This document shows, one piece after another, positions 35,742 to 55,493 of a DNA stretch of 64,000 nt (position 1 is the stretch's first letter; the number at the start of each line of letters is the position of its first letter). The position numbers and the translations under genes are program-made. The notes under the pieces were generated by a model, which saw only the letters and a program-made list of their open reading frames with translations, was not told the DNA's origin and did no database searches. Location of the stretch: the IMG/VR virus record IMGVR_UViG_3300040781_000350. The stretch is one strand, 5' to 3'. The DNA is from a virus. Taxonomy: Duplodnaviria > Heunggongvirae > Uroviricota > Caudoviricetes.

Positions 35742-35938
35742 TACCTGATAGCAGCTTTGATATCACCTATAGTGTTTACACCTTGCTGTGAGTTATCAAT
35801 AGCGATCACTTCTGTATCGTCTGGTAGTAAAGATGCAATTGGGTTAGTCCATCTCATTCCATTACTACGAAAAGCTACCTCTTCTACATTATCTGGATCG
35901 TTTTTAGTTGGCGCTTTGACTGCAAATGTTGTACTCAT
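35741..35938 (-). CDS. hypothetical protein (65 aa)
   Basis: First gene of the small-gene array. Promoter element at 35941-35961. Confidence 0.45.
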   Translation of the reverse strand: MSTTFAVKAPTKNDPDNVEEVAFRSNGMRWTNPIASLLPDDTEVIAIDNSQQGVNTIGDIKAAIR

Positions 35939-35961
35939 ATGTATATTATATCAGAGTTCCA

Positions 35962-36207
35962 TTACTTAGCTGGCGGCCATGTTAGGCCTGCCTCTTGTAG
36001 CTTAGGTACATCTTCGTCAGCAATATCGAACTCATCCTGAGTAGTGTAGTTAGCTTGTTGATGCTCTCCTAATGTGTCGAAGACCATCTGCTCTGGAATG
36101 AACCACCCATAGTCATTACTACTACCTTTAAAGTACACCCTGACCATATTACGGTCATTGATATGATTGACTGATGCGCTCTTATGCTCTGTGATTTGTA
36201 TTACCAT
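35962..36207 (-). CDS. hypothetical protein (81 aa)
   Basis: ORF in the small-gene array (35.9-45.7 kb), where genes follow a conserved promoter element ending 3-7 nt before the ATG or are operonic. This one is operonic with the gene upstream. Confidence 0.4.
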   Translation of the reverse strand: MVIQITEHKSASVNHINDRNMVRVYFKGSSNDYGWFIPEQMVFDTLGEHQQANYTTQDEFDIADEDVPKLQEAGLTWPPAK

Positions 36208-36217
36208 AATTATCCGA

Positions 36218-36403
36218 TCATGCTTGATGCTCTACACTCTTTGCTTCCTGGACCTGCTTCTGGCGCAGGACAAACTCTTCTACCTCGTCAGCTCTGATGC
36301 TGTACGTCGGTATGTGACGATCATGAAACTCCACTCGATAGAACTCACCTTGTGTGGTTGTTAGCGTGACTTCTTTTAGCTCGATTGTATTTGCTTTGCT
36401 CAT
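36218..36403 (-). CDS. hypothetical protein (61 aa)
   Basis: ORF in the small-gene array. Promoter element at 36407-36426. Confidence 0.4.
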   Translation of the reverse strand: MSKANTIELKEVTLTTTQGEFYRVEFHDRHIPTYSIRADEVEEFVLRQKQVQEAKSVEHQA

Positions 36404-36426
36404 GTCGATATTATATCAAGGTTCCA

Positions 36427-36696
36427 TCACAGCATCGGATTGTGCGGAACGTCATTATCTTCTTCCTCACAAATCTCGTGATAGGCACATCCTCTTAGTA
36501 CGCTATTAGCTTTGTACCGAACTGTACCGGTGAATGCTTCTCGCTTTTCCTTCTTGAGTCCAGCTGCTCGAACGTATCGTTCAGCTTGCTCCCGGGTGTT
36601 AAATGTCGCAACTATCTCTTCTTGTTCTTCAGTCTTGAACTGACCTCCGATATGTGAAAGAAAAACGTGCTCTGTTATACCTATTAGCTTTACCAT
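36427..36696 (-). CDS. hypothetical protein (89 aa)
   Basis: ORF in the small-gene array. Promoter element at 36700-36719. Confidence 0.45.
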   Translation of the reverse strand: MVKLIGITEHVFLSHIGGQFKTEEQEEIVATFNTREQAERYVRAAGLKKEKREAFTGTVRYKANSVLRGCAYHEICEEEDNDVPHNPML

Positions 36697-36725
36697 GTAA
36701 TTATTATATCGTGGTTCCGTGAGTG

Positions 36726-37016
36726 CTAATAAACCGCTACCATACGGTGGCTGAACATTGCAGAGAGCTCTCTCAGATTGAGTGGCTTCTCAGCGATCGT
36801 CAAGAACGCATAACCTTCCAGCTCTTCCTGAACCTCTTCTAAATAAACCTCATCACCTTCCCAATCACCTGACTCATCATTGAACGTCACGCGCTCAAAC
36901 GTCATCAAATTGCTATTGCGATCGAGCGTCATGTCGATGTCTTCGTTCTCGCCTAGGTGCACAAACACCATCATATCGTTGCTGCGCATTGCTGGTAATT
37001 CATTTTTCATATTCAT
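36726..37016 (-). CDS. hypothetical protein (96 aa)
   Basis: ORF in the small-gene array. Start at MNMKNELP. The upstream residues in the ORF track (LEPSYNIV) are the promoter element read in frame. Confidence 0.45.
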   Translation of the reverse strand: MNMKNELPAMRSNDMMVFVHLGENEDIDMTLDRNSNLMTFERVTFNDESGDWEGDEVYLEEVQEELEGYAFLTIAEKPLNLRELSAMFSHRMVAVY

Positions 37017-37187
37017 AACAATATTATATGATGGTTCCAATACGGCTATCCGATCAGTCCGACTGCGTTTGCAATCATCACTGCTACAAGCACGACAATA
37101 CCGAACAGTACAACTTTTGCTATTGTTTTGAAGCTCCAACTATTATTTGGTCCAATCATTTTATTTCCCTTTGTTTTTGTTATTTGT

Positions 37188-37577
37188 TTATGCAGCAGTC
37201 TCTTCTACTAACTGCTCTCCATGAAAGCGTCGTGCCCACACCTCTTTGATATGCTCTTTCTGCTCTCTTGTAGATGAAAGGGATACGTACTGCAATCGTA
37301 GCAGGCGCTTGTAACCGCTAAGGTCTTCTACGATGTTGCCATCACCATCGTGCTGCTTTTCATGACGAACCAGACCTCGGCCCTTCTTCGAAACATACTC
37401 AGCGAGGAACTTCTCGTAACTGTTGTCGTATTTCTTCTCAATCAAGCCAGCTAGATACTTGTGATGGAATGCATTTTCCTCACCGGTAACAGTGCACTTG
37501 ACTTTGACCGTGCAGTTAAAAGCTTGCTTACCATCAGCAAACTCGTAGTTGTATAATTTTTTAGCTTTCTTTTCCAT
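37188..37577 (-). CDS. hypothetical protein (129 aa)
   Basis: ORF in the small-gene array. Start at MEKKAKK, 4 nt after the stop of the upstream micro-gene. Confidence 0.45.
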   Translation of the reverse strand: MEKKAKKLYNYEFADGKQAFNCTVKVKCTVTGEENAFHHKYLAGLIEKKYDNSYEKFLAEYVSKKGRGLVRHEKQHDGDGNIVEDLSGYKRLLRLQYVSLSSTREQKEHIKEVWARRFHGEQLVEETAA

Positions 37578-37581
37578 AATG

Positions 37582-37668
37582 TTAAACGTCAATTGCAAAG
37601 TACATCACCATCGCTGCATAGGCTGCAACTACTGTAATGACTGCTATGTGAATGATTAAATGTTTCAT
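37582..37668 (-). CDS. 28-aa hydrophobic micropeptide (putative)
   Basis: ORF in the small-gene array. Sequence MKHLIIHIAVITVVAAYAAMVMYFAIDV, a single transmembrane helix. Promoter element at 37671-37690. Confidence 0.35.
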   Translation of the reverse strand: MKHLIIHIAVITVVAAYAAMVMYFAIDV

Positions 37669-37670
37669 AC

Positions 37671-37690
37671 TGATATTATATCGAGGTTCC
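37671..37690 (-). promoter_or_regulatory. conserved early-type promoter-like element
   Basis: Copy of the conserved early-type promoter-like element, reading tgatattatatcgaggttcc. Its TATAAT hexamer also supplies the TAA stop of the upstream gene. Confidence 0.55.
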
Positions 37691-37849
37691 GAAAAGGTAC
37701 TCATCATATGCTGCCTCATCAGAAGCTTCATATTCTGCTTTATGTAGTGCAATTTCATAATCTGCTTCATCTCGCAGAAATTGCGCTGCTTCAGCTGCTT
37801 GCCATGTATCAATATATTGATCGCGATCGTGTTCTTCTAGATGTGCCAT
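37676..37849 (-). CDS. hypothetical acidic protein (57 aa, not in ORF track)
   Basis: ORF in the small-gene array. Hand-translated as MAHLEEHDRDQYIDTWQAAEAAQFLRDEADYEIALHKAEYEASDEAAYDEYLFGTSI. Its TAA stop lies inside the TATAAT of the next promoter element. Confidence 0.35.
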   Translation of the reverse strand: MAHLEEHDRDQYIDTWQAAEAAQFLRDEADYEIALHKAEYEASDEAAYDEYLFGTSI

Positions 37850-37870
37850 ACCAATATTATATCAGAGTTC

Positions 37871-38143
37871 CTAGAGGGAGTTACGTTTAATGCATCCTGC
37901 TTGGTACTGAAGACGATCTGTATCTTTCAACCAATTCGCAACGAATGTCTTGAGAGGGTACTCAGCATACAATCCATCTTTCCTTCCGCCGATGTGATGA
38001 AAGCCATAATGAGCATTCACATCAATACCTTCGCTGGTAAGAAAGTCAAGATGGGTTCCGAGATCCCATTCCGGATGAATCAGAGTGCTTTGAGCTACCG
38101 AAACTTTTGCTAAATCGAATGTCTGTATTTGCGTTTTTATCAT
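37871..38143 (-). CDS. hypothetical protein (90 aa)
   Basis: ORF in the small-gene array. Promoter element at 38144-38165. Confidence 0.45.
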   Translation of the reverse strand: MIKTQIQTFDLAKVSVAQSTLIHPEWDLGTHLDFLTSEGIDVNAHYGFHHIGGRKDGLYAEYPLKTFVANWLKDTDRLQYQAGCIKRNSL

Positions 38144-38165
38144 ACCAATATTATATCAGGGTTCC
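38144..38165 (-). promoter_or_regulatory. conserved early-type promoter-like element
   Basis: Example copy of the conserved promoter-like element found before nearly every minus-strand gene start in the window. On the plus strand it reads (acc)aatattatatcagggttcc. In minus-strand sense it is GGAACC-CT-GATATAAT-ATTGGT-ATG, an extended -10 (TGnTATAAT) ending 6 nt before the start codon. This copy reads ccaatattatatcagggttcc. Variants occur with 0-6 substitutions. Confidence 0.6.
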
Positions 38166-38259
38166 GAGATGTGATTAGCACCATACTAGCTGTTCAGCAT
38201 CAACATCTAGCTTACGAAGATACTCTTCACGTGCATATCGTTCCTGACGAGCCTTCACT

Positions 38260-38775
38260 TTACGATCGCGCTCTTCTTGAGCTAGTCGACGAGCTTCCTT
38301 CATCCTTAGCAACTTGCTCGTTACCAACAATGATCTCAGCTGCAAGTTCCTCATCGAGCGTCTTCAACCATGCTCGGAACTCCTCGCAATCTTCCTTTGA
38401 TGTCTTAACGACAGCCCATGCATCGTTAAAGTCAACACTCTTATCGAACTTTACGATATGACCAGGGCTGCAACCGCATGAACATCCAGCATTGCGTGAG
38501 TAATGAATACTCTTCACATCAGAAAGAATTTCCTTGATTGCTGCATTAACTGCACGATTGCACTTGCGAAGAACTTTGTTCCAAGTCTTGCACTTAAAGT
38601 CTAGATTATAAATCTTCTTTTCATTGAACCAATCATCTGCGATCGTCATCACACTTTCTTCCTCTTTAGGTGTCTCAGTGTAGATGACCGCTCGGGTGCT
38701 GTGTGAAGGAGCCCAACCATTGCGGCTCTTTGACATCATTTTGTTTCGAATTTCTGCTGTGGTGTTATTTTTCAT
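38260..38775 (-). CDS. hypothetical protein (171 aa)
   Basis: ORF in the small-gene array. Promoter element at 38778-38797. Confidence 0.45.
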   Translation of the reverse strand: MKNNTTAEIRNKMMSKSRNGWAPSHSTRAVIYTETPKEEESVMTIADDWFNEKKIYNLDFKCKTWNKVLRKCNRAVNAAIKEILSDVKSIHYSRNAGCSCGCSPGHIVKFDKSVDFNDAWAVVKTSKEDCEEFRAWLKTLDEELAAEIIVGNEQVAKDEGSSSTSSRRARS

Positions 38776-38777
38776 AC

Positions 38778-38797
38778 CAATATTATATCAGGGTTCC
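38778..38797 (-). promoter_or_regulatory. conserved early-type promoter-like element
   Basis: Copy of the conserved early-type promoter-like element, reading ccaatattatatcagggttcc. In this copy a TTGATC -35-like hexamer sits 18 nt upstream of the TATAAT. Confidence 0.6.
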
Positions 38798-38807
38798 AAT
38801 ACGGCGA

Positions 38808-39128
38808 TCAACCTGCGTCCCAACCATATGGCTTGCAAAGGAACGGCTTACCATCTACATCAACCAGATCACCTACTGATACGCTATACAGAGGACCATC
38901 ATCAGCTCGGAACTTTTCTTCGAAGCGAGCTTCTTCGCTGTCCATGTCCATAAAATCACGTGGCTTGTTTGTAGCTGTGAACACCCACTCAGCAGCCTTT
39001 TCCTGCTCGACCACTCCGTCTGGAAGATCATACTCAAATACTAAGTGGCGAGTTAGGTTATCGAGCTCCTCATCGGTTGCTCCAAATGCTTGGCGTGTGT
39101 CGGTTGGTCGGTATAATTTAATTTTCAT
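38808..39128 (-). CDS. hypothetical protein (106 aa)
   Basis: ORF in the small-gene array. Promoter element at 39131-39150. Confidence 0.45.
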   Translation of the reverse strand: MKIKLYRPTDTRQAFGATDEELDNLTRHLVFEYDLPDGVVEQEKAAEWVFTATNKPRDFMDMDSEEARFEEKFRADDGPLYSVSVGDLVDVDGKPFLCKPYGWDAG

Positions 39129-39130
39129 AC

Positions 39131-39150
39131 TGCGATTATATCAGGGTTCC
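39131..39150 (-). promoter_or_regulatory. conserved early-type promoter-like element
   Basis: Copy of the conserved early-type promoter-like element, reading tgcgattatatcagggttcc. The upstream flank CACATCTC is shared with the copy at 38144. Confidence 0.6.
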
Positions 39151-39159
39151 GAGATGTGG

Positions 39160-39339
39160 CTAGAGTCGAATCTTGATCATCTGTTCCAACCAAGCATGGA
39201 CCTCTTCAATAGTGTCAGCATCTTCTGCACCTTCAACATGATCCATAAACACATCCTCATACCATGTCTCAAAGCTTCCGCTCATCAACAGATTGTAAAC
39301 GCCTTTTGCAACTTCTTCTGTGGTGTGTGTATCTTTCAT
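39160..39339 (-). CDS. hypothetical protein (59 aa, not in ORF track)
   Basis: ORF in the small-gene array. Hand-translated as MKDTHTTEEVAKGVYNLLMSGSFETWYEDVFMDHVEGAEDADTIEEVHAWLEQMIKIRL. Promoter element at 39342-39361. Confidence 0.35.
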   Translation of the reverse strand: MKDTHTTEEVAKGVYNLLMSGSFETWYEDVFMDHVEGAEDADTIEEVHAWLEQMIKIRL

Positions 39340-39360
39340 ATTGATATTATATCGAGGTTC

Positions 39361-39690
39361 CTAGAAGTGATAGAGCGTTGAGCTCTTGTTGTCCTTATCG
39401 ATGCAATTCGTATGCCAATTGTGCATGTAAGCTGGGGTATACTTCTTGCGATGCTCATCGTATTTGTCTTTGCGGCAAATACGCACCTTACCGTAGAAAG
39501 TTCCTAGAGCGCCATACCCGCGATCCTTTTGCGTGACTTTTGTCTTGAACTGTTTGCGATTCTCTTTAAGCCAATCAGTAGCTTCCTTTCTACTCTCAAA
39601 GCCAAGATCGTACATGAGGTAGTTCGTATTGCGTCCAGTGATGCCTTCTGCATAGGCATTTGTATAAGTCATCCAAATAATATATTTCAT
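39361..39690 (-). CDS. hypothetical protein (109 aa)
   Basis: ORF in the small-gene array. Promoter element at 39694-39713. Confidence 0.45.
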   Translation of the reverse strand: MKYIIWMTYTNAYAEGITGRNTNYLMYDLGFESRKEATDWLKENRKQFKTKVTQKDRGYGALGTFYGKVRICRKDKYDEHRKKYTPAYMHNWHTNCIDKDNKSSTLYHF

Positions 39691-39719
39691 ACAATTATTA
39701 TATCAGGGTTCCGTGAGGG

Positions 39720-39974
39720 CTACACACCTGGCAGCTCGAACTTCACATACCAGTGTGATTGATTTGCGAGCGATGCTCCTCCTCGGAACGGCTTCCATTT
39801 ATCGCCGGTAGCAAGAATGATTGCTTCTGGGAAAGCTTTCCTTACTTTCTCCTCGAGCATCTCTGATGTGTACCCATTTCGGTAAAAGTAACCTTTGCGT
39901 ACTGTAAAGATGCCTTTGCTCTTGCTGACGTGGTTTCCGATCTTTTCTTCGACTTGACGTGATGTAATTTTCAT
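39720..39974 (-). CDS. hypothetical protein (84 aa), MKxIT N-terminus family
   Basis: ORF in the small-gene array. Starts MKITSRQVEEK. Promoter element at 39977-39996. Confidence 0.45.
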   Translation of the reverse strand: MKITSRQVEEKIGNHVSKSKGIFTVRKGYFYRNGYTSEMLEEKVRKAFPEAIILATGDKWKPFRGGASLANQSHWYVKFELPGV

Positions 39975-39999
39975 ATGGTTATTATATCGAGGTTCCATG

Positions 40000-40509
40000 C
40001 TAGATGTTGTGGATGATCTTACCTGCAATTTTGATCTTGCGAAGTGATGATATTTTGTAATCACGTTCTGGTATTTCCTTCTCGATGCCTACTGCTTGCT
40101 GAGTAGCTGTTGGTGCTGCTTTAGGCAAGAATGGCTTTAGTTCCGCTAGAGGAATCTCAACTCCAGTCTCCTTATCGATGTAATAAGTTTTGCCGTTCAG
40201 CTGTTGAGGCTTGACGCTCAAGTATTGCTCACCTTTATGATGAATGATGAAGCGATGTTCCTCATCACGAACACCCCAACGACGAGGCTTAGCTTTGAAA
40301 ATAGCTTCCTTCCCCTCACGTTCGAGCTGACGATTAACGCCTGCTTCGTAGTTAGTTCCGATCAAGCCGCCAACGAATGCAACCTTGATGACGCGTCCAA
40401 AGTATGGATTGTTCGTCTTGTTCATGCGAGGCTCGGTATGAGCTTCGAATGAGATTGGTGTAGTGCCATTATTGGCATTTTCGATGATGTGGTGTACGAT
40501 GTTTTTCAT
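40000..40509 (-). CDS. hypothetical protein (169 aa)
   Basis: ORF in the small-gene array. Promoter element at 40513-40532. Confidence 0.45.
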   Translation of the reverse strand: MKNIVHHIIENANNGTTPISFEAHTEPRMNKTNNPYFGRVIKVAFVGGLIGTNYEAGVNRQLEREGKEAIFKAKPRRWGVRDEEHRFIIHHKGEQYLSVKPQQLNGKTYYIDKETGVEIPLAELKPFLPKAAPTATQQAVGIEKEIPERDYKISSLRKIKIAGKIIHNI

Positions 40510-40530
40510 AATCAGATTATATCTAGGTTC

Positions 40531-40722
40531 CTAGACGTCCAGTCTGTATGCTGTAACTACTAGATCATCGATCTCACTCTCTTTCTGAGCAATTTGCTTC
40601 TCTAAATAAGCTAGTGCATCATCAGGTGCATCCTTATTCATCGCAAGTGTATGATAATATTCATGCAAGATGCTCAATTGTGCCTCAGCATGCTCCAATT
40701 TTTGTAGTGGTGTCTTTTCCAT
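40531..40722 (-). CDS. hypothetical coiled-coil protein (63 aa)
   Basis: ORF in the small-gene array. Start at MEKTPLQ. Promoter element at 40725-40744. Confidence 0.4.
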   Translation of the reverse strand: MEKTPLQKLEHAEAQLSILHEYYHTLAMNKDAPDDALAYLEKQIAQKESEIDDLVVTAYRLDV

Positions 40723-40833
40723 ACCAACATTATATCTAGGTTCCAAGACATGAAAGGACTCGAGCCACACCACATAACTCGAGTCCCGACCCCCTTGGGT
40801 CAACCACCTTTTGCCAACCACGGCACATGAAAA

Positions 40834-41049
40834 TTATTCTTCCGGTTCCTTAAAAATTTCGTCTTGCTCTCCTGGCAAAAGACCAGTCATAAGAAATTCT
40901 CGCTCAGTTGCATTGAGCATCGGAAAGGCTTCCTGAATCATCATGCCGTCTTTCCATTTTTTGTTGCACTCGAGAAACTCTTGCGAGCTAATATTGAGAT
41001 GCATCTCATTTGTTTTGCCTGTCAGTGGATTGGTTTTTGTGATCTTCAT
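40834..41049 (-). CDS. hypothetical protein (71 aa)
   Basis: ORF in the small-gene array. Promoter element at 41053-41072. Confidence 0.4.
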   Translation of the reverse strand: MKITKTNPLTGKTNEMHLNISSQEFLECNKKWKDGMMIQEAFPMLNATEREFLMTGLLPGEQDEIFKEPEE

Positions 41050-41061
41050 AATGTTATTATA

Positions 41062-41349
41062 TTACTGTTCCGTTTCAGCAAGACGCTCGTTATATTTTGC
41101 AAGAATATGATCTTCAACCCTCTTGTATGAACCCCAGCAACTTGATGGCACATGATTGTAGATGAATACAATGAGCTTTCTGAGCTCATCACTCTCTTGA
41201 GGACAATTATCATATCGTCCGTAAGCACCGAAGAGATCATTTGCAAGTACTGCATTGATAAACCCTCCTGGCTCATAACCATTCTCGATATAGTCCATCA
41301 TCGTCTGAGCAAACCGTTTCGGACACTTGTTGTAATCTATTTCAAACAT
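41062..41349 (-). CDS. hypothetical protein (95 aa)
   Basis: ORF in the small-gene array. Promoter element at 41352-41371. Confidence 0.45.
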   Translation of the reverse strand: MFEIDYNKCPKRFAQTMMDYIENGYEPGGFINAVLANDLFGAYGRYDNCPQESDELRKLIVFIYNHVPSSCWGSYKRVEDHILAKYNERLAETEQ

Positions 41350-41375
41350 ATATTATTTTATCAGGGTTCCGTCAC

Positions 41376-41612
41376 CTAAACGTTGTTCGGTCCAGTACCA
41401 ACTCGATCAGATACTTTATCGAGATAGTCATAAAGGAATTCAATTTGCGCTAATCGAGCGAGATCCATATTGTTATCGAGATTCGCTTCGCGTTCGAAAC
41501 TGTTGAGTTGTTCCTCGAGAGCTTCAAACATATATGTCATATGCATCTGACGCTCATCAGTTGACATTTGTTTGTACTTTGTAGTGTATTTAATTTTCTG
41601 TGCTTGATTCAT
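41376..41612 (-). CDS. hypothetical protein (78 aa)
   Basis: ORF in the small-gene array. Promoter element at 41615-41634. Confidence 0.45.
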   Translation of the reverse strand: MNQAQKIKYTTKYKQMSTDERQMHMTYMFEALEEQLNSFEREANLDNNMDLARLAQIEFLYDYLDKVSDRVGTGPNNV

Positions 41613-41638
41613 ACTACGATTATATCAGGGTTCCGAAA

Positions 41639-41917
41639 TTAGAACTCCTTCTTAAAGCTGATGCATGTGACTGTTTGGCCGCGCATCCATCGAGCGGAAC
41701 GATTGATCTCATGATCATATACCTCGAATGTATAAAGCTCGAATGCTTTGGTGAGCATGTCTTTGATCATGCGCTTTGCTGCATCATCGTAGTTACAATT
41801 CGTTTTGATGCGAACTGTTCCGTCTTTGCGTACATCTCGGAAATAATTTCCTGGTGTAACAGTGCGTGTTGACGCGATTAATACTCGAATGTCTCTAATG
41901 GTTGGTGCTGTAATCAT
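41639..41917 (-). CDS. hypothetical protein (92 aa)
   Basis: ORF in the small-gene array. Start at MITAPTIRD. Promoter element at 41918-41939. Confidence 0.45.
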   Translation of the reverse strand: MITAPTIRDIRVLIASTRTVTPGNYFRDVRKDGTVRIKTNCNYDDAAKRMIKDMLTKAFELYTFEVYDHEINRSARWMRGQTVTCISFKKEF

Positions 41918-42001
41918 ACTATTATTATAAGAAGGTTCCAAGAATGGAAAGCTGCCAGCTCTTTCGAACTGACAGCCCAAGTCGTTTCCGCCCTCCATTC
42001 A

Positions 42002-42514
42002 CTAACCGAAATGCGCTGTCAATACTTTGTTCATGCATACTCGAAGTTCCTTCAAGTCAGCAATCAGCGCATCTCGTGAGTAAAGTTCCAATACCTTCAC
42101 TACATCATGCTTGTACGAATCAAGCTTGCTTACTAGCGTAGGTTTGTCTTTGATAAAATCGTAGTAGTCACCATCAGCTTTGACTGTTCCGTCTCTCTCG
42201 TTGATAGCATACTCCATGTAATTACAGACCTCTTTGTCATAACCAAGTACTTCACAAACGGTGTAAATTCGCATGCGATGACTCAGATCGCAATCACCGG
42301 TAACAAGTTCCTTAGCAAGGTTGTAACCGGAACGTTTTGTTGGCCAAGGACCATCTTTTACATATTTAAATGCTCCTTCTTCAACTTCCAAATTGTTCCA
42401 GAACTTCCAATGATCGTATGGGTAAGTATTCTCCCATGCCCCATCGGAGAGCTGCCCGAGAATCTCATGTTCGAAAAGAGCTTTGAGCCGTTTTGGTAAT
42501 GTCAATATATTCAT
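42002..42514 (-). CDS. hypothetical protein (170 aa)
   Basis: ORF in the small-gene array. Here the promoter element (42548-42566) sits about 30 nt upstream, so this gene has a leader. Confidence 0.45.
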   Translation of the reverse strand: MNILTLPKRLKALFEHEILGQLSDGAWENTYPYDHWKFWNNLEVEEGAFKYVKDGPWPTKRSGYNLAKELVTGDCDLSHRMRIYTVCEVLGYDKEVCNYMEYAINERDGTVKADGDYYDFIKDKPTLVSKLDSYKHDVVKVLELYSRDALIADLKELRVCMNKVLTAHFG

Positions 42515-42579
42515 AATGTGTGCGGTTGTTATTGCTTAATTGCAACTATATTATAAAAGGGTTCCGTTCTGGCTAACCC

Positions 42580-42702
42580 CTAAATTGATGCAAGTAGCAC
42601 GATACCTAAACCGATTGCGAGGCCGATTAGCCAGCTACCTAGCAAGGCACCTATGCAAGTTAAAAAGGCGACAAATGCGAGAGCGTTTGGATTAATATTC
42701 AT
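42580..42702 (-). CDS. 40-aa hydrophobic micropeptide (putative, not in ORF track)
   Basis: ORF in the small-gene array. Hand-translated as MNINPNALAFVAFLTCIGALLGSWLIGLAIGLGIVLLASI, with one or two transmembrane helices. Confidence 0.3.
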   Translation of the reverse strand: MNINPNALAFVAFLTCIGALLGSWLIGLAIGLGIVLLASI

Positions 42703-42811
42703 AATGTGTTCCGTGTTCTAGATAATGTTTAATTGTTCCTGCTTCCTCTTCATCGATGCAGTGACTGATTAAAGGATCTATAATCATTTGTTCAATACAG
42801 GAACGTTCCTG

Positions 42812-42846
42812 TTCCAGTTCCGTGGCGGCGGCTATTACCCTTACTG
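42812..42846. repeat. perfect 11-bp GC-rich inverted repeat flanked by GGAAC/GTTCC repeat clusters
   Basis: GTGGCGGCGGC-tattacccttact-GCCGCCGCCAC. Upstream is ggaacgttcctgttccagttcc (42789-42811). Downstream is ctgttcctgttccactaaacgttccagttccagttcc (42857-42892). Confidence 0.7.
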
Positions 42847-42901
42847 CCGCCGCCACTTGTTCTATCTGTTCCTGTTCCACTAAACGTTCCAGTTCCAGTT
42901 C

Positions 42902-43240
42902 CTACACTCGTTGTGGATCGAAAATATGGAACACTGTCACTTGTGTGTTCCGCATAATATCACTCACATTATACTTCGGGTCATCTTTCAAGGAACTGAT
43001 GCCAAACCCTCGCAGGTATTGAGAGATTGCCAATGTGTGGCCAGCTGTAACAACTGCACTGACATTCAATCGTGATAGTTCCTCTACTACCTTCTCGAGG
43101 ATCGATAACGGAACAACCTTCTCGATCTTAATACGATACCGACCATCTTGATGACGATCATTATAATGAGTAACACAAGTCAAATCGACTCCATGTTTCT
43201 CAATTGCATTGCGAACTTCTTTATATGTGATGTTTTTCAT
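42902..43240 (-). CDS. hypothetical protein (112 aa), MKNIT N-terminus family
   Basis: ORF in the small-gene array. Start at MKNITYKEV. Promoter element at 43241-43262. Confidence 0.45.
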   Translation of the reverse strand: MKNITYKEVRNAIEKHGVDLTCVTHYNDRHQDGRYRIKIEKVVPLSILEKVVEELSRLNVSAVVTAGHTLAISQYLRGFGISSLKDDPKYNVSDIMRNTQVTVFHIFDPQRV

Positions 43241-43263
43241 ATCGATATTATAAAAGGGTTCCA

Positions 43264-43788
43264 TTACGCTGCAATCAGCTCTCTAACAATCAGCTTGCCG
43301 AGAGTTTCATGCTTCTTTCCGATCATGTACCGATCTCTGTTGATCTTGTTGAGCTGGAACCCTTTTGGTATGCGAGCTTTTTTCGCATAGATGACTCCTG
43401 TTTCAACATTCATGATAGCATATAAGAGCTTTTTACGACTGCGAGCAACAACATGTTCTGTAATATCTGTTTTGCCATTTGCAAGACGTGTAGGAGATGC
43501 TCCAATTTCTCTACAGATGCGCTTCCAACGATAGTCATGCCTGCAGCATTCACCATGACGATGATAAGCAAGTGCGTGAGCGATCTCATGCAGCATCGTA
43601 TCGAGAACCTCTTCCTCTTTACCAACACGGCACAATGTTTGATTGATTGCGAGAGTGCGATCGCGGTAGCGGCATTGACCGTATGTACGATAAGCACTCT
43701 TCTTTAGCAACCGCGGGCGCCATCCATGTTTGTCGAGGCCGTGCTGCTCAATTAACTTTCTGTACGTTGTTAGTGGTGTCATCATCAT
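43264..43788 (-). CDS. SprT-like zinc metallopeptidase domain protein (putative)
   Basis: ORF in the small-gene array. 174 aa. HEIAHALAYH contains the HExxH motif, with a C-x-H…C cluster downstream, in a SprT-like layout. Start at MMMTPL. Promoter element at 43791-43810. Confidence 0.4.
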   Translation of the reverse strand: MMMTPLTTYRKLIEQHGLDKHGWRPRLLKKSAYRTYGQCRYRDRTLAINQTLCRVGKEEEVLDTMLHEIAHALAYHRHGECCRHDYRWKRICREIGASPTRLANGKTDITEHVVARSRKKLLYAIMNVETGVIYAKKARIPKGFQLNKINRDRYMIGKKHETLGKLIVRELIAA

Positions 43789-44015
43789 ACTACGATTATA
43801 TCTGGGTTCCAAAAAGGCAAAACCATTTAAGATCATCGCAAATCTCTATAGAGGCGAGCCGCTAAGCTCGGGTTTTAACCCCTCAGTATCAGTAGGTCGA
43901 TGCAGTCACCTATCATCAGCTTTAATTTAAAGACGAGCTGGTTCGATTGCGTCTCCATCCGCGTTTAGGGTCTGTGATGGGTTCGACCTTGCGATAAATT
44001 ATTGTATCAGTGTTC

Positions 44016-44192
44016 CTATTCAACAACTGCTTCAATGCCATGATCAACTGCTTCACTGACCTTAACACCATTACGCATATGGTTAAGAGCAATCTGCTGC
44101 GCTTTGTTCATCTGTGTTAGTGTTAGCACAACAGCAAAGTCATTGCGTGCAACTTGTTCAATTGTCTGTAGGCTGGCGTCTCTAATTTTCAT
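44016..44192 (-). CDS. hypothetical protein (58 aa)
   Basis: ORF in the small-gene array. Start at MKIRDAS. Promoter element at 44195-44214. Confidence 0.4.
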   Translation of the reverse strand: MKIRDASLQTIEQVARNDFAVVLTLTQMNKAQQIALNHMRNGVKVSEAVDHGIEAVVE

Positions 44193-44261
44193 ACGGTTAT
44201 TATATTGTGGTTCCATGCACATATTTAATGTGAACAACCGATTAAATATGCATCCATAATA

Positions 44262-44519
44262 TTATCGATTAGTTGCGAAGCGAGGAACAAAGCAGTTCTC
44301 AACCACTCCAGTTCGGCGGTTCATGTTTGTGACAATACCACAAATGTCATGCATAAATTCAACTCGTGGAGCTTCATGTAAACGCTCCCAATTCATTCCC
44401 ATATCATCTGCATTGAGCAGATCCATGACAAGTGTCATGCGGTCAATTTTGATGCCCATCTCGGTGAATTCATCTTCAGCGCGATCAGCTACTTTGGTCA
44501 TTATTTCTAGTGGTCTCAT
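44262..44519 (-). CDS. hypothetical protein (85 aa)
   Basis: ORF in the small-gene array. Promoter element at 44522-44541. Confidence 0.45.
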   Translation of the reverse strand: MRPLEIMTKVADRAEDEFTEMGIKIDRMTLVMDLLNADDMGMNWERLHEAPRVEFMHDICGIVTNMNRRTGVVENCFVPRFATNR

Positions 44520-44540
44520 ACTCAGATTATAAGAAGGTTC

Positions 44541-45014
44541 CTACCTGTGCTTGACTGCTAATGTAACACTTGCATGATAGTTACAAGGCATGACCTGTAC
44601 GCTATGTACATTAACTGGCTCGGAAAGTTCCATCCATTGCTGTAATGCTGGAACTAAATCTTCATTTGGATCATCCCATGTACCTGTATTGATATCAAAG
44701 CTGATGTTCACGCTTCTAATTTCGCGATTAGGCTTAGGTAGTTCTATTTCCTTACCTTGTTCAAAGCGAAGACCATAGCATGATTGCGAAGCAAGAGCAA
44801 TTGCGATGTCAGCAACATGACCTTTAAATGTTCCAAGCTGCTTAGTAGTGCGACCTTCACAGTCACCTTCTGTTGTAACCTTCCATATACCTTCTGGAGG
44901 ACCGACAGTGTCTTGCATTTTGTTCCAGATATCACGCTGTCGTTCGACAGCACTATCTCGGCGTTTAAGTTCCTGAGCTAGCTGCTCAGATGTAAATTGT
45001 TTAAGGCTATCCAT
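44541..45014 (-). CDS. hypothetical protein (157 aa)
   Basis: ORF in the small-gene array. Operonic with the gene upstream (TAA-T-ATG junction). Confidence 0.45.
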   Translation of the reverse strand: MDSLKQFTSEQLAQELKRRDSAVERQRDIWNKMQDTVGPPEGIWKVTTEGDCEGRTTKQLGTFKGHVADIAIALASQSCYGLRFEQGKEIELPKPNREIRSVNISFDINTGTWDDPNEDLVPALQQWMELSEPVNVHSVQVMPCNYHASVTLAVKHR

Positions 45015-45015
45015 A

Positions 45016-45171
45016 TTAGCCTACGATCTTATATTCGTCGCGCATGCTATCTGCTAATGACATCTTGACCGACTTAAGAGTGATGCCCGGAACTTTGCAT
45101 AGTGCATATTCTTCACGTGCACGTTCGGTCACAAGCTTGTTAAATTCTTTCTGTGTGATGGTTGTTTTCAT
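45016..45171 (-). CDS. hypothetical protein (51 aa, not in ORF track), MKTTIT N-terminus
   Basis: ORF in the small-gene array. Hand-translated as MKTTITQKEFNKLVTERAREEYALCKVPGITLKSVKMSLADSMRDEYKIVG. Variant promoter element at 45174-45194. Confidence 0.35.
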   Translation of the reverse strand: MKTTITQKEFNKLVTERAREEYALCKVPGITLKSVKMSLADSMRDEYKIVG

Positions 45172-45195
45172 AAGTGGTATGTTAAGAGGGTTCCA

Positions 45196-45420
45196 TTATG
45201 GCTCTTTACGAAGAGATGGATGACATGTCTCATTAAAGCCTTCAAACCATGCAGCATTTTCGAGCTCATTTTGTTCGACCTTCTTAGTCATCTCTGGTGT
45301 ATCATGTCTTCTATGACCTAAACGAAATGGTCCACCTGGTGTGTAATCCCAGTTCTCAGAACCATCAAACTTAAGACCGGTCAGGCGACCATCTTTGTAT
45401 GCTTTAATGTTTGATTTCAT
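45196..45420 (-). CDS. hypothetical protein (74 aa)
   Basis: ORF in the small-gene array. Variant promoter element at 45424-45444. Confidence 0.45.
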   Translation of the reverse strand: MKSNIKAYKDGRLTGLKFDGSENWDYTPGGPFRLGHRRHDTPEMTKKVEQNELENAAWFEGFNETCHPSLRKEP

Positions 45421-45446
45421 GTCGCTATGTTAAGAGGGTTCCAAGA

Positions 45447-45641
45447 TTAATCATCACCGAATAAGTTGTCATTGTCCCATTGATCACAAGCACGAACTAG
45501 ATCAGTGATGACCTGCTCACGACCAACATTGAATGCGAAGCGAATGAATGTTAAACACCCATGATCATATACACCTGGTATGTTCCGGCCGCGTGCTTCA
45601 GCGAGTGATTCGATTGCTTGTTCGTATGTGATTGTTTTCAT
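45447..45641 (-). CDS. hypothetical protein (64 aa), MKTITYE N-terminus
   Basis: ORF in the small-gene array. Start at MKTITYEQAIE. Variant promoter element at 45642-45662. Confidence 0.45.
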   Translation of the reverse strand: MKTITYEQAIESLAEARGRNIPGVYDHGCLTFIRFAFNVGREQVITDLVRACDQWDNDNLFGDD

Positions 45642-45678
45642 GCCTCTAGTATAGAGAGGTTCCAATCCAGCTCAGAAC

Positions 45679-45694
45679 GGAACAGTGATATAAT
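45679..45694 (+). promoter_or_regulatory. promoter-like element in plus-strand orientation (P1) at the edge of the noncoding region
   Basis: GGAACAGTGATATAAT read directly on the plus strand. This is the same element as the minus-strand family but inverted. No ORF follows it. Confidence 0.5.
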
Positions 45695-45790
45695 ATGTGT
45701 ACAGCCAGATCGTGTCGTGAGCGAAATGCAGAGCCCGAGGGGTTGGCGAGAACTCCCTTGAGATATGGACCTGCTCCATCTCGGAAAAAA

Positions 45791-45806
45791 GGAACTGTGA
45801 TATAAT
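45791..45806 (+). promoter_or_regulatory. promoter-like element in plus-strand orientation (P2)
   Basis: GGAACTGTGATATAAT on the plus strand, followed by about 340 nt of GC-rich ORF-free sequence. Confidence 0.5.
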
Positions 45807-45809
45807 TGA

Positions 45810-46150
45810 TGTGCTCCACCTACCTGCCTAACAAGGATTGCCGGGATGGAAGGAGCAGAGATCTAGAGCTAGAGAGCAAACTACTCACCCTAGAGCGGAA
45901 AAGACCGGATGGGTTGCTAATGAAGAGTTTATAGGCCCCCACGCCTAGGCGGATCCAAACGGTCCAGCTATGCTTCTCTATAGAAATCCAGCTAAAAATG
46001 CTGGTAATGCGCCAGGTGCATAGGGAGTTAGAAGATTCTAACTTCAGGGTCGCCCGTCCGGATTCTCGCCCGGGTGAATTTACGCCCGTTTTGCCGCTCT
46101 GTAACTCGTTGAGAGGGTATGAGTTTACAGCCGATCCTGGCACGTAGTTC
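45810..46150 (+). ncRNA. candidate structured noncoding RNA (GC-rich, ORF-free) downstream of plus-strand promoter P2
   Basis: No ORF of 60 aa or more on either strand apart from compositionally implausible Ser/Leu/Arg-rich ones. Many short hairpins (CCAGCtaaaaatGCTGG, TTAGAAgaTTCTAA, CCTAGG palindrome, three CGCCCG repeats). GC content is far above the local mean. Its identity is unknown. Confidence 0.35.
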
Positions 46151-46151
46151 T

Positions 46152-46167
46152 GGAACCATGATATACT
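46152..46167 (+). promoter_or_regulatory. promoter-like element in plus-strand orientation (P3, degenerate -10)
   Basis: GGAACCATGATATACT on the plus strand, followed by an ORF-free AT-rich then purine-rich region. Confidence 0.4.
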
Positions 46168-46385
46168 AGTGTTTTAATTTAACAGTGAGATAGCAGCCAT
46201 GTAATAGATACACATAATAATATACGTAGACGTGCATATGAAGCGCTATATATGAAGCGCTTAGGGCTCTCCGAGAGCCACGTAAGGATATATACGTGGG
46301 GTAATAATAAATGCCCGGGATAGCCAGGACGAATCTGCTATTGCAAGCGGGCTCAACTTGTGCGTATAGCTAGAAAGGAACACCT

Positions 46386-46490
46386 GCGCGGGAGATCGCG
46401 AGAGAAAGTGCGGGAGAGATAGCGCGCAGTGCGATAAGAGAGCGAGCGCGGGTGGGAGGGAGAAAATTTGAGCGGGAGACCTAACCAAAT
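46386..46490 (+). repeat. purine-rich degenerate repeats (GCGGGAGA motif about 5 times)
   Basis: gcgcgggagatcgcgagagaaagtgcgggagagatagcgcgcagtgcgataagagagcgagcgcgggtgggagggagaaaatttgagcgggagacc has a strongly GA-rich plus strand. Confidence 0.6.
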
Positions 46491-46735
46491 ACCCGCTTAG
46501 ATTCTATCATTTCCGTGCCCTCATATACCTCTCCTCACATAACCCTCTTGACTTTTCATACCTTGCTTAGCCTCTCCTCTAGGCTATTGCTCACATCAAC
46601 AACAACCCTGCATCCATCATTAGTAGATATTACATTCACACTTATATGTTCATCCTCTATCTCCACACCATGATTTTTCATCATGCTCTTTACCCTCTCT
46701 TTTATACCGCTTTTAAAATTATCATCTACCATTTT

Positions 46736-46810: not shown

Positions 46811-46946
46811 GTTATTAATACCCTGCGGGTGGGCTCATTTCCTTCACTGGTGAGATATCGGGCTGTATACTAATGCCATTCCAGTTCCAAAAATACTTCC
46901 ACACATCTTTCTCTTTTCTACACCATATCAATACCATAATTATACT

Positions 46947-47156
46947 TCAGTTCCTTTTTGTATACACCATCCACACACCATCTCTTTTACTCAATGAAAC
47001 ACATTCAAACAACATCTTACCATTCACAATTTCATATGGTACGCCAGCTACAATAAGTATTGCACATACTTCATCCTCAGTCAAGTCACAAACATATTCC
47101 TTTTTACATGCTTGTTCACACATATTTAAAATGCTTTTAATATCATCAATCTTCAT
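46947..47156 (-). CDS. hypothetical protein (69 aa)
   Basis: First minus-strand gene after the 1.3 kb noncoding region. Confidence 0.4.
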   Translation of the reverse strand: MKIDDIKSILNMCEQACKKEYVCDLTEDEVCAILIVAGVPYEIVNGKMLFECVSLSKRDGVWMVYTKRN

Positions 47157-47160
47157 TATA

Positions 47161-47574
47161 TTACCCAGATAATCTTTTTGTTTTAATTAAACCATTTGTA
47201 TCTCTATAAACCATGAACCGGTGTGTTACAACAATACCAAATCTCACACTATTATACACTCTATATGATCCACACTTAGTCTGTGTGAAATCAAATTCAG
47301 CAATTGCATGCTTTGGTACAATAATTAGTCTCTTGTTATCATCTCTATAATGGTATTCATCTGTGTATTCCACCACATGCTCTGATTTTGGATTACATAA
47401 CCCCCAGTGACGCAAGTTACCTATGAATACATTTTGTGTTTGTATCCAGTGGTCTTGACCAATAATCTTAATCTTTACAGTCAGCTTGTGTACATCTTTA
47501 CGCTGAACTTCATAGAACCTGTGTTTAAAAAATTGTTTGATCTTATTCATCCACCGGAACATAATATGTTTCAA
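47161..47574 (-). CDS. hypothetical protein (up to 137 aa)
   Basis: Start is either 47574 (31-nt overlap with the upstream gene) or MNKIKQ at 47553. Confidence 0.45.
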   Translation of the reverse strand: MKHIMFRWMNKIKQFFKHRFYEVQRKDVHKLTVKIKIIGQDHWIQTQNVFIGNLRHWGLCNPKSEHVVEYTDEYHYRDDNKRLIIVPKHAIAEFDFTQTKCGSYRVYNSVRFGIVVTHRFMVYRDTNGLIKTKRLSG

Positions 47575-47860
47575 CTACTGTGCGGGTGCGCTGCTCTACC
47601 ACCTTGGCACCATCCAATATTTCGCACGGCATAACACAATCATACCAATCATTATCACCATCTGCATGTACCTGGTAAAAGCTCACGAACACATCACATA
47701 ACTTAGCAACCTTTGGTGTGATTGAATACCATCTATGATTATCTGTCTCACCATTAGTCACTGATTCAGTTTCAAACATCAGCATAGATGCTAGACCCTC
47801 ATCACTACACACTTCATTTTCTAATTCAAAATGTTTCTTTATCAGTTCTCTTATATTCAT
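47543..47860 (-). CDS. hypothetical protein (105 aa)
   Basis: Start at MNIRELIKK. Promoter element at 47862-47885. Confidence 0.45.
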   Translation of the reverse strand: MNIRELIKKHFELENEVCSDEGLASMLMFETESVTNGETDNHRWYSITPKVAKLCDVFVSFYQVHADGDNDWYDCVMPCEILDGAKVVEQRTRTVVETYYVPVDE

Positions 47861-48069
47861 AATTGTATTATACCTCTGTTCCTTTTTCCTCAATATGCTT
47901 CTTCACTATCCACAGATCATCACCTATTTGTCTTAACCATTAACTCTTATGTGCTTACTATTATTTTCCAGTATTTCTACCATGTATCTTCATTACTTCG
48001 CGGAAGCTCCTCTGTCTAATTCTCTTGTTCTACTATACTCTCTCATGGAACCCCTGGTGGGAACAGCTA

Positions 48070-48285
48070 TTATTCATCAACCCATAGCAAAATATCGATG
48101 ATACACATGATACACACATAAAACCAAATAATAATATATATCCAACCTTCTACTAAATTAATAGTAGGATCATCTGAGATGAAGTCAGGTTTTGAATAAC
48201 ATAACAATACCATTACAGCAAGTGTATAAAGAATATTAGTTTTCATAATTAACCTAACGTACAACTTAACCCGATAAGGAACCAT
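48070..48285 (-). CDS. small membrane protein (71 aa)
   Basis: Two transmembrane helices. Confidence 0.4.
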   Translation of the reverse strand: MVPYRVKLYVRLIMKTNILYTLAVMVLLCYSKPDFISDDPTINLVEGWIYIIIWFYVCIMCIIDILLWVDE

Positions 48286-48434
48286 CCGATAATACCTAAC
48301 ATATACACTGTCCCAGCAGCGCTATCATCTGCATCGCTCAGTGGTTTTTTATCAAGCAATGATGATAATGAGATTGTAACATGAAATGTTAGTGCCCAAA
48401 TCAGAAGGGGTATAAAATTGATTATATCCATCAC
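48249..48434 (-). CDS. small membrane protein (61 aa)
   Basis: Two transmembrane helices. Promoter element at 48436-48455. Confidence 0.4.
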   Translation of the reverse strand: MMDIINFIPLLIWALTFHVTISLSSLLDKKPLSDADDSAAGTVYMLGIIGWFLIGLSCTLG

Positions 48435-48520
48435 TTATTATAAGGTTGTTCCTTCTTACATTCACTTGCTGGTACTACTTTTCTGAATCTCTACATATAA
48501 TATATATGCTACAATTTCGT

Positions 48521-49018
48521 TCATAGTGTTGGGAGCTCCCATCCATCCTCGTTCATGATGTCGGCGGCTTCTTTGGCACCGGCTTGTGAGGTGAATAATG
48601 ATGTAAGATCTTGTGAAAGAATATGGGGACCAGCACACCGGAGGCGGTGGCGGGAATCGAACCAGATGGAATACCGAGAGTAAGTTGCTTCATGCTTCGC
48701 ATTCATCTCCATAGCCAGCGAGTAGTATCGCTGGTAGAAGGTGAAGAACTTGGAAGCTTGTTCGGCAGCATTTCGGGTTGGGAAGGTTCTACCAGCTCTT
48801 GGGTGATGAGGGCGGTCGCCAGCACTGTGACAGATCCAACCATTATAGGTAACTGTATACATACCACCTTTCGGATCCCATGGTGTGACCGGATCAGGTG
48901 TTTCTTTAATAATCCTGTTAATTTGAGCTTTAACTGAAGCAATACGTTCAGTCTGACGAGCAGACTCTTTTGTAAGTTCACCTAGCTGTTCTAATAGTAC
49001 TTTCATTTCATCTTTCAT
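48521..49018 (-). CDS. hypothetical protein (165 aa), GC-rich gene
   Basis: ORF with noticeably higher GC than its surroundings. Confidence 0.45.
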   Translation of the reverse strand: MKDEMKVLLEQLGELTKESARQTERIASVKAQINRIIKETPDPVTPWDPKGGMYTVTYNGWICHSAGDRPHHPRAGRTFPTRNAAEQASKFFTFYQRYYSLAMEMNAKHEATYSRYSIWFDSRHRLRCAGPHILSQDLTSLFTSQAGAKEAADIMNEDGWELPTL

Positions 49019-49020
49019 AA

Positions 49021-49227
49021 TTAATAATTCCTTTCACAACCATTAAAGATTATATTGTTACAATCTTGGTTTTCATGCTCTACTTGATTGTATGCATAGT
49101 GTTCTTCATCACCATTTTTGTATTGAGCCTCTATTGAGACACTCATTTCTGTCCCATCATCATACTCGACCGTGAAATGATATGAATATTCATCTTCTCT
49201 ATTTTTCATCTTGTGTAAAATATACAA
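49021..49227 (-). CDS. hypothetical protein (68 aa)
   Basis: ORF. Confidence 0.4.
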   Translation of the reverse strand: MYILHKMKNREDEYSYHFTVEYDDGTEMSVSIEAQYKNGDEEHYAYNQVEHENQDCNNIIFNGCERNY

Positions 49228-49459: not shown

Positions 49460-49466
49460 AACAACA

Positions 49467-50653: not shown

Positions 50654-50665
50654 ATAGTGATTATA

Positions 50666-50866: not shown

Positions 50867-50966
50867 TACACTTATTATAATATTGTTCCTACACTGAATA
50901 TTCTTCACCTGATTTCACATCTTCAACATTCACCACATCTATTTGAACCTAGTATTACTTATATTG

Positions 50967-51446: not shown

Positions 51447-51450
51447 AATT

Positions 51451-51828: not shown

Positions 51829-51833
51829 AGTTG

Positions 51834-52250: not shown

Positions 52251-52251
52251 T

Positions 52252-52644: not shown

Positions 52645-52647
52645 AAT

Positions 52648-53885: not shown

Positions 53886-53888
53886 AAA

Positions 53889-55485: not shown

Positions 55486-55493
55486 TTTTATTA

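Follow-up and report, generated by a model that had tools for sequence, protein, structure and literature searches.

A compact promoter element set on the start codon suggests leaderless transcription in a clade of distant T4-like phages

In a stretch of 64,000 nucleotides from the IMG/VR virus record IMGVR_UViG_3300040781_000350 (the whole of this stretch is called the window below), dozens of minus-strand genes are preceded, at an almost fixed distance, by the same short element, GGAAC-N5-TATAAT. We hold with good confidence that this element is a prereplicative (early or middle) promoter of a T4-like phage clade, that it functions without a -35 box and that its transcripts would start with the A of the ATG and be leaderless. 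Dozens of genes would then probably have mRNAs that open with the start codon and can do without a ribosome-binding site, a reading that we draw from sequence comparisons.

An earlier note on this DNA had described a hyperconserved element just before the start codons, and the counts bear it out. When one mismatch is allowed in the hexamer, the common core GGAAC-N5-TATAAT occurs in 54 copies on the minus strand and four on the plus strand; with up to two mismatches, GGAACCYYGATATAAT has 31 matches in the window against 0.15 expected. In 46 of the 54 copies the hexamer lies 5–8 nucleotides (nt) from an ATG (6 nt in 40 copies, 5 in three, 7 in two and 8 in one), and each of these ATGs opens an open reading frame (ORF). 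The exact pattern GGAAC-N5-TATAAT-N6-ATG is present 33 times on the minus strand and not once on the plus strand, with about 0.001 occurrences expected. Counted from the hexamer, 37 of the 83 minus-strand TATAATs have an ATG exactly 6 nt downstream, and GGAAC is present at 33 of those 37. The coupled starts are ATG only, and a GTG or TTG at the proper distance was found for none of the eight uncoupled copies. Matches to Pfam and PHROG domains begin at residues 2–16 of the ORFs defined by the motif. Four minus-strand genes (30056, 25780, 23978 and 5699) have TATAAT-N6-ATG without GGAAC and may form a separate promoter class with the -10 hexamer only.

The claim that nearly every start codon is preceded by the element stands within about 35.9–45.7 kb, where 23 of the 25 copies in the range 35938–45700 are coupled directly to an ATG and two variants with the hexamer TAACAT are found besides. 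It does not stand for the whole window, in which the motif is carried by about 49 of the roughly 138 minus-strand genes (about 36%), while approximately 81 have neither the motif nor a Shine–Dalgarno (SD) sequence. The genes lacking the motif, whose starts were taken from a crude ORF heuristic, are mostly internal cistrons of tightly packed units with start–stop gaps of -4 to +5 nt, and their upstream sequence is A-rich, especially at -3 and -5. Packing is tight around the element itself: the stop codon of the preceding gene is the TAA within TATAAT in two cases (before the genes starting at 37668 and 49459), lies 12 nt before the ATG in two cases and is a TAG fused to GGAAC (TAGGAAC) in five. 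Both the embedded stop codons and the in-phase translation of the element as E-P-R-Y-N-x-x-M had been pointed out before and are seen in the sequence.

In its anatomy, the element resembles a compact promoter that lacks a -35 box. In 40 window sites aligned on the ATG, the -35 region shows no conservation, and nothing is conserved upstream of -26. GGAAC occupies -22 to -18, with C favoured at -17; T at -15, G at -14 and A at -13 are weakly preferred; TATAAT occupies -12 to -7 (T at -12 in 39 of 40 sites, A at -11 and T at -7 in all 40) and is followed by A at -6. Position -1, which lay outside the search pattern, is a pyrimidine in all 40 sites (T in 34 and C in 6), and +1 is A. Two details of the earlier description fared less well. 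The sequence CACATCTC, said to be shared by many copies, has two exact copies and four with at most two mismatches. The sequence GATATAAT had been called a textbook extended -10; the consensus hexamer is there, but the TG at -15/-14 is a minority feature, found in 10 of the 40 window copies and 156 of 381 copies in the clade. RNA polymerase would be expected to start at the A of the ATG, as the hexamer ends exactly 6 nt before it and a pyrimidine sits at -1; judged by its bases, the layout fits the -10 promoters of the sigma-70 family, including their usual pyrimidine/purine dinucleotide at the start site. We also considered and rejected a sigma-54 promoter (GG with a 10-bp spacing), which would have a different geometry and a GC at -12 that is missing here, and an archaeal TATA/BRE promoter, whose TATA box would need to lie at about -26.

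The surroundings of the element hold little else that could start, stop or translate these genes. Between 33000 and 47000, conventional -35/-10 promoters show no excess (37 against 34.4 in shuffled sequences), nor do intrinsic terminators (14 against 9.3), none of which is tied to the motif. The mean duplex energy with the anti-SD sequence is +0.7 for 45 motif genes, -1.19 for 76 nonmotif genes and -1.81 for random positions, and SD-like tetramers in the window are not above background frequency. In the mechanism that we propose, GGAAC would take the place of the -35 box, with about one-quarter of the window copies adding a TGn extended -10; a host holoenzyme with its primary, sigma-70-family sigma factor would read TATAAT and start at the A; and the leaderless mRNA would be translated from its 5'-terminal AUG without an SD. 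A separate promoter for each gene of the small-gene array would make sense because there are no terminators between the genes and read-through RNAs would bury the downstream AUGs. Elsewhere, a single promoter would head a packed unit, and the internal genes would be translated without an SD from overlapping or A-rich junctions.

The same architecture recurs in relatives of the phage, whose loci we designate by L numbers and whose recovered contigs are metagenomic DNA assemblies. At least 52 of the 124 IMG/VR loci examined have three or more copies of the element, with up to 21 copies in 12 kb. The 279 sites of those 52 loci give the consensus wAAGGAACtcTGATATAATAAtAgTATG, again without a -35 box and with a pyrimidine at -1 in 273. 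Relatives hold 355 strict copies, 238 of them 6 nt and 44 of them 5 nt from the ATG, and a 183-kb marine contig with 67% portal identity (L019) carries 12 copies of GGAACnnTGATATAAT-AGTAGT-ATG before small genes. A BLAST search with the consensus 34-mer returned chance matches only; the match in Campylobacter phage NCTC12673 turned out to be an ordinary leadered promoter. When 185,579 species genomes were scanned for GGAAC-N3-GATATAAT-N6-ATG, all of the matches listed were single and due to chance, except for one phage-like contig (L038).

A second motif, resembling the late promoters of T4, obeys a corresponding rule. Structural genes, as well as every gene on the plus strand, have nnTAAATA at 4–8 nt (most often 5) ahead of their ATG, at 2738, 3956, 19715 and 35310 on the minus strand and at 113, 610, 812, 8165, 62728 and 63870 on the plus strand of the window, and also in L017 and L019. 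It precedes orthologues of late genes, those of portal, gp15, gp13 and the prohead protease. The late-type ATTAAATA is found in the forms ATTAAATA-N6-ATG before the portal gene (2739–2752, minus), ATTAAATA-N5-GTG before the gp15-like gene (3957–3969, minus) and ATTAAATA-N8-ATG before a plus-strand tail-fibre-like gene (62712–62727, plus), and AATAAATA-N7-ATG stands before a plus-strand gene of 437 amino acids (aa) (8150–8164, plus). Across clade sequence totalling 609 kb, ORF-opening ATGs lie most often, in a sharp peak, 5 nt from TAAATA (120 cases; 42 at 6 nt; background at most 19) and 6 nt from TATAAT (302 cases). In T4, the late promoter TATAAATA spans -13 to -6 (PMC1524935), and a sigma-70 hexamer spans -12 to -7; this difference of 1 nt implies that both classes would start on the A of the ATG. 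That two unrelated motifs should follow matching spacing rules is expected of promoters and would not be predicted for a ribosome-binding or processing signal, and the late mRNAs, too, would be leaderless by the same geometry. The genes of gp55 and gp33 are not in the 64-kb window. A perfect TATAAATA-N5-ATG is also found at a gene resembling HNH/NUMOD3 homing endonucleases (18933–19715, minus), located between an RNA ligase gene and small ORFs.

The element is also found before genes whose product is RNA and is unlikely to be a translation signal, since these are not translated. In L239, it lies 8 nt upstream of a 63-nt RNA resembling transfer-messenger RNA (tmRNA) (914–976, minus; RF00023, 63.4 bits, E=3e-22), which matches both ends of the tmRNA model and thus has the tRNA-like domain only, the mRNA-like part being absent; here the promoter copy and the RNA directly follow a textbook intrinsic terminator. 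Genes for tRNA lie 31 nt (L038) and 44 nt (L182) downstream of the element. In the window, three plus-strand copies point away from the gene array into an ORF-free, GC-rich stretch of about 800 nt (45695–46500, plus; GC content about 0.5 against 0.4) that may hold noncoding RNAs: GGAACAGTGATATAAT at 45679–45694, with a predicted +1 at 45701 (T at -1 and A at +1), GGAACTGTGATATAAT at 45791–45806, with a predicted +1 at 45813, and GGAACCATGATATACT at 46152–46167, all without a downstream ORF. Compared with shuffled sequences, the folding z-scores are -3.0 for 45813–46160 and -2.0 for 46174–46520. Rfam gave no match in the window, blastn and nhmmer comparisons of the candidate RNA with clade loci matched the promoter alone, and a search with a core pattern for homologues returned L189 and one doubtful locus only. 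In L189 (5754–5900), the tandem-promoter arrangement is the same, and the first RNA has the common core AGCCCrAGGGGTTGGsGAGrACT. From these sequence features, we consider the RNAs of 45695–46500 candidates for new phage noncoding RNAs.

The leaderless promoter suggested in the earlier note thus gains from several sides: the spacing, the pyrimidine at -1 and A at +1, the lack of SD sequences, -35 boxes and terminators, the second promoter class and the use before RNA genes all point the same way. Some observations nevertheless weigh against it. With about 81 genes lacking the motif, leaderless initiation cannot be the sole mode of translation, and the major capsid gene in L017 has an A-rich leader, AAAAGGAAAAAACGAAAAATT-ATG, with no adjacent late motif. 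Should the host be a flavobacterium, for which L038 gives a weak hint, neither the promoter type nor the mostly leadered mRNAs of these bacteria would fit well: the flavobacterial primary sigma uses a different -7 element, and most flavobacterial mRNAs are leadered (PMC6847099). One could instead imagine that the element acts in the RNA of long polycistronic transcripts, as a signal for ribosome recruitment or re-initiation independent of SD or as a processing site that trims the RNA at the AUG. Its fixed distance to the ATG would suit such a role, a phage without SD sequences needs another initiation signal, and read-through RNAs with internal copies must exist if no terminators separate the genes. 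Yet the core matches the sigma-70 -10 hexamer perfectly and has a pyrimidine/purine start dinucleotide at the canonical distance, and the unrelated T4 late-type motif is offset by exactly 1 nt, as known promoter geometry expects; with the element also standing before tRNA, tmRNA-like and other ORF-free loci and the many genes that are translated without it, an action at the RNA level seems very improbable to us.

A different objection is that the repeats may mainly be recombination cassettes, equivalents of the PeSLs of T4-like phages, which shuffle small genes and have only a secondary role as promoters. The copies concentrate among small ORFan genes as PeSLs do in T4-like hyperplastic regions (PMC4122927), and identical cores of 16–22 nt recur. 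The identity common to the copies is, however, just about 22–25 nt long with flanks that are not conserved, the stem-loop is absent, and the element is also found at the head of conserved enzyme genes and of RNA genes. We saw no exchange of genes with the element at its borders, and the sole close pair of relatives, L017 and L018, is 99.99% identical; an apparent PeSL-type swap between the two was a gene-calling artefact. We find it improbable that recombination is the main function of the repeats and retain the promoter as the preferred explanation.

Within the promoter explanation, the role of GGAAC is less clear. The earlier view of it as a separate recognition element is reasonable, the motif being as invariant as the -10 hexamer (33 of 37 sites). 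By analogy, we tentatively suggest, at somewhat less than even chance, that it is contacted directly by RNA polymerase in the manner of the Z-element, which is read by the beta'-zipper. The Z-element, 5 bp at -22 to -18 with AACCT in T7A1, can replace the -35 element when the -10 is strong (PMC3173786). Our element has the same position, no -35 box and a strong -10, and many copies read GGAACCT; position and context match, and GGAAC(C/A/T) overlaps the AACC of the Z consensus (AACCT/AACAT) with an offset of 1 bp. Against this counts that GGAAC is invariant and has an additional leading GG, whereas the Z-element of T7A1 is loose, its substitutions having modest effects, and that the AAC(C) core is shifted by about 1 bp. 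It is possible, if doubtful, that the promoter and its leaderless output are as described above but that GGAAC is bound by a dedicated specificity protein encoded by the phage. That protein could, with the same reservation, be an activator at -20, a partner in sigma appropriation or a phage sigma factor reading both GGAAC and TATAAT, making this a middle-type class under phage control. Besides its invariance, GGAAC is kept across phages whose portals are just about 65% identical, the scan of 185,579 species genomes gave no sign, among the matches listed, of a host lineage using the motif, and the four TATAAT-N6-ATG genes without GGAAC could represent a factor-independent class. On the other side, the roughly 50 window proteins scanned, which come from 64 kb of a genome of about 200 kb, included no recognised member of a transcription-factor, sigma, MotA or AsiA family, and the small genes of the hyperplastic region would need transcription before any phage protein exists. 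In other T4-like phages, such genes are immediate-early.

The earlier note, which took GGAACC for a possible binding site of a transcription factor, also pointed to clusters of it at 42789–42892. Eight GGAAC copies at 6-nt spacing are indeed found at 42790–42902 (minus), flanking a perfect 9-bp GC hairpin (GGCGGCGGC...GCCGCCGCC), but the segment, which begins right behind the stop codon of the upstream gene, can also be translated in frame into E-L/E-Q repeats, leaving it ambiguous whether it is coding or a protein-binding array. GGAAC clusters in relatives were rejected as binding arrays, as they lie in conserved coding sequence.

The individual copies in the main array are all on the minus strand. 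The form GGAACCCTGATATAAT-N6-ATG is found at 38141–38165 (90-aa ORF), 38773–38797 (171 aa), 39126–39150 (106 aa), 39688–39712 (109 aa) and 41610–41634 (78 aa); GGAACCTCGATATAAT-N6-ATG at 37666–37690 (28 aa, with the previous gene's TAA inside TATAAT), 39337–39361 (59 aa) and 39972–39996 (84 aa); and GGAACTCTGATATAAT-N6-ATG at 35936–35960 (65 aa) and 37847–37871 (57 aa, the previous stop TAG being fused to GGAAC). GGAACCTAGATATAAT-N6-ATG stands at 40507–40531 (169 aa) and 40720–40744 (63 aa), and GGAACCTTCTTATAAT-N6-ATG at 41915–41939 (92 aa) and 44517–44541 (85 aa). Represented once, and likewise followed by N6-ATG, are GGAACCTTGATATAAT (36401–36425, 61 aa), GGAACCACGATATAAT (36694–36718, 89 aa), GGAACCATCATATAAT (37014–37038, 96 aa), GGAACAGTAATATAAT (41047–41071, 71 aa), GGAACCCAGATATAAT (43786–43810, 174 aa), GGAACCACAATATAAT (44190–44214, 58 aa) and GGAACCTCTCTATACT (45639–45663, 64 aa), the last being the array's final copy; GGAACCCTGATAAAAT-N5-ATG (41347–41370, 95 aa) is one base shorter. 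GGAACCCTTTTATAAT occurs as GGAACCCTTTTATAAT-N6-ATG at 43238–43262 (112 aa) and, at 42550–42565, as a leadered copy without an SD, separated by a 35-nt spacer from the ATG at 42514. GGAACACTGATACAAT (44001–44016) has no ATG adjacent, and the variant GGAACCCTCTTAACAT-N6-ATG precedes ORFs of 51 aa (45169–45193) and 74 aa (45418–45442).

Outside this range, 19 more copies lie at 7244–35739 (minus), 17 of them coupled to an ATG. Their GGAAC starts include, for coupled copies, 7268, 11692, 13790, 15434, 16515, 17928, 18508, 23033, 27443, 31792, 33383, 34896 and 35739, and for leadered or offset copies, 8143, 12833 and 29570; among the genes that follow are those of radical-SAM, CCA/polyA-polymerase, phosphoesterase and Thg1-like proteins. 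One gene start in this part may need revision: the DNA ligase ORF was called from the ATG at 12843, giving a 20-nt overlap with the upstream gene (12805–12843, minus), while the promoter copy at 12818–12833 is followed by an in-frame ATG at 12807 that is probably the true start. Upstream of the array, 13 copies at 46939–62661 (minus; GGAAC starts 46954, 47882, 48452, 49481, 50012, 50675, 50889, 54432, 56024, 57119, 60162, 61590 and 62661) mostly head multigene units, the internal genes of which have neither the motif nor an SD.

The window represents 64 kb of a distant T4-like myophage that is known from metagenomes only. It encodes a T4-type portal (975–2738; PF07230, E=4e-97), a gp15-like tail sheath stabiliser, an ATP-dependent DNA ligase, two RNA ligases, a thymidylate synthase and CCA/polyA-polymerase-like and Thg1-like enzymes, nearly all genes being on the minus strand. 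No nucleotide match was found when the region was compared by Megablast with 50,697 phage records. The closest portals in cultured phages, from cyanophages and Vibrio phages, have 31–35% identity, while metagenomic contigs of 201 and 221 kb carry an identical portal and environmental portals at 62–68% identity number in the hundreds, Tara Oceans sequences among them; the phage therefore belongs to a large uncultured aquatic or marine clade. No relative turned up in GTDB genomes scanned with a portal profile, and a search for related loci with a 157-aa early protein returned none. The sole host hint, a weak one, is L038 (CBFHVY010000069.1), an 11.7-kb phage-like contig binned in a metagenome-assembled genome of Flavobacteriaceae, with four promoter copies, ThyX, a RecA/KaiC-like ATPase and three tRNAs. 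We also note a cluster of genes related to RNA repair and tRNA at 13766–22178 and 31315–31770 (minus), comprising Thg1-like, CCA/polyA polymerase, two RNA ligases, phosphoesterases and a tRNA amidotransferase-like protein; tRNA genes are absent from the window and several are present in relatives. In L017 (18717–18820 and 20434–21342), a QueF-like gene adjoins the major capsid gene and may indicate 7-deazaguanine modification of the DNA.

If the reading is right, its uses are practical as well as conceptual. The rule GGAAC-N5-TATAAT-N6-ATG together with TAAATA-N5-ATG calls gene starts and temporal classes in marine phage contigs of an abundant group, and as the promoter marks new phage noncoding RNAs, the rule flags them as well. 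The architecture predicts the translation biology of the host, and biochemists gain a promoter of only 25 bp whose -20 element may be new. Such promoters, not depending on a -35 box, would also be unaffected by any phage factor that knocks out sigma region 4, as happens in P23-45 (PMC3950348) or through AsiA in T4 (PMC2988021). A bolder idea, unlikely as it now appears, is that the whole early and late programme of the clade is leaderless, GGAAC at -20 being read by a new phage factor, a counterpart of MotA one helical turn closer, and SD avoidance favouring 5'-terminal AUGs. A phage translating from 5'-terminal AUGs could, if this were true, disable host translation that depends on SD sequences or leaders.

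Promoter arrays have been described in T4-like phages and, separately, leaderless genes in some bacteria; our literature searches found no earlier description of the motif or of leaderless T4-like phages, and a T4-like lineage with two promoter classes of differing geometry, both set on the AUG, and no SD anywhere appears to be undescribed in the literature searched. Among T4 promoters, the middle class is similar in having a phage-specific upstream element that replaces the -35 box beside an excellent sigma-70 -10. The MotA box, (a/t)(a/t)(a/t)TGCTTtA with a TGCTT core, lies 12±1 bp from the -10 and is centred at -30 (PMC2988021); the comparison with it made in the earlier note fails on this geometry, GGAAC being centred at -20 and 5 bp from the -10, with no conservation at -35 to -26. 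T4 middle transcripts have leaders with an SD, unlike the predicted leaderless transcripts here. The nnTAAATA before late-gene orthologues resembles T4 late promoters (PMC1524935), but it lies 5 nt before the ATG and the late mRNAs would be leaderless, whereas those of T4 have leaders with an SD. The middle and late promoters of the Thermus phage P23-45 (PMC3950348) similarly do without a -35 contact and stay active when sigma region 4 is disabled; they are, however, of the TG extended -10 class, while TG is present in 25–41% of the copies here, and the phage lineages are unrelated. The transcripts of P23-45 may themselves be leaderless, a word that does not occur in that paper.

By analogy, the closest genomic counterpart is the early-promoter PeSL cassette of T4-like hyperplastic regions, which consists of a stem-loop, -35 box, N17, -10 box, SD and start codon (PMC4122927, PMC2839356). 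Both place a conserved promoter before nearly every small ORF of a T4-like variable region, but the stem-loop, -35 box, SD and leader, all four of which were tested for, are lacking here. The closest functional match, again by analogy, is the leaderless architecture of Deinococcus–Thermus and Actinobacteria, with a -10 adjacent to the ORF. In Deinococcus, a -10 motif 6–7 bp before ORFs marks leaderless mRNA (PMC12340547), a precedent also given in PMC4007540. The leaderless genes of these bacteria (PMC12340547, PMC3160421, PMC4007540) share with ours the -10 located 6–7 bp before the start, the lack of an SD and an inferred transcription start on the start codon. They differ in that here the genome is of a T4-like phage of 35–43% GC, the hexamer is a full TATAAT rather than TANNNT, GGAAC is invariant at -22 to -18, the starts are ATG only, and a second, late promoter class obeys the same rule.

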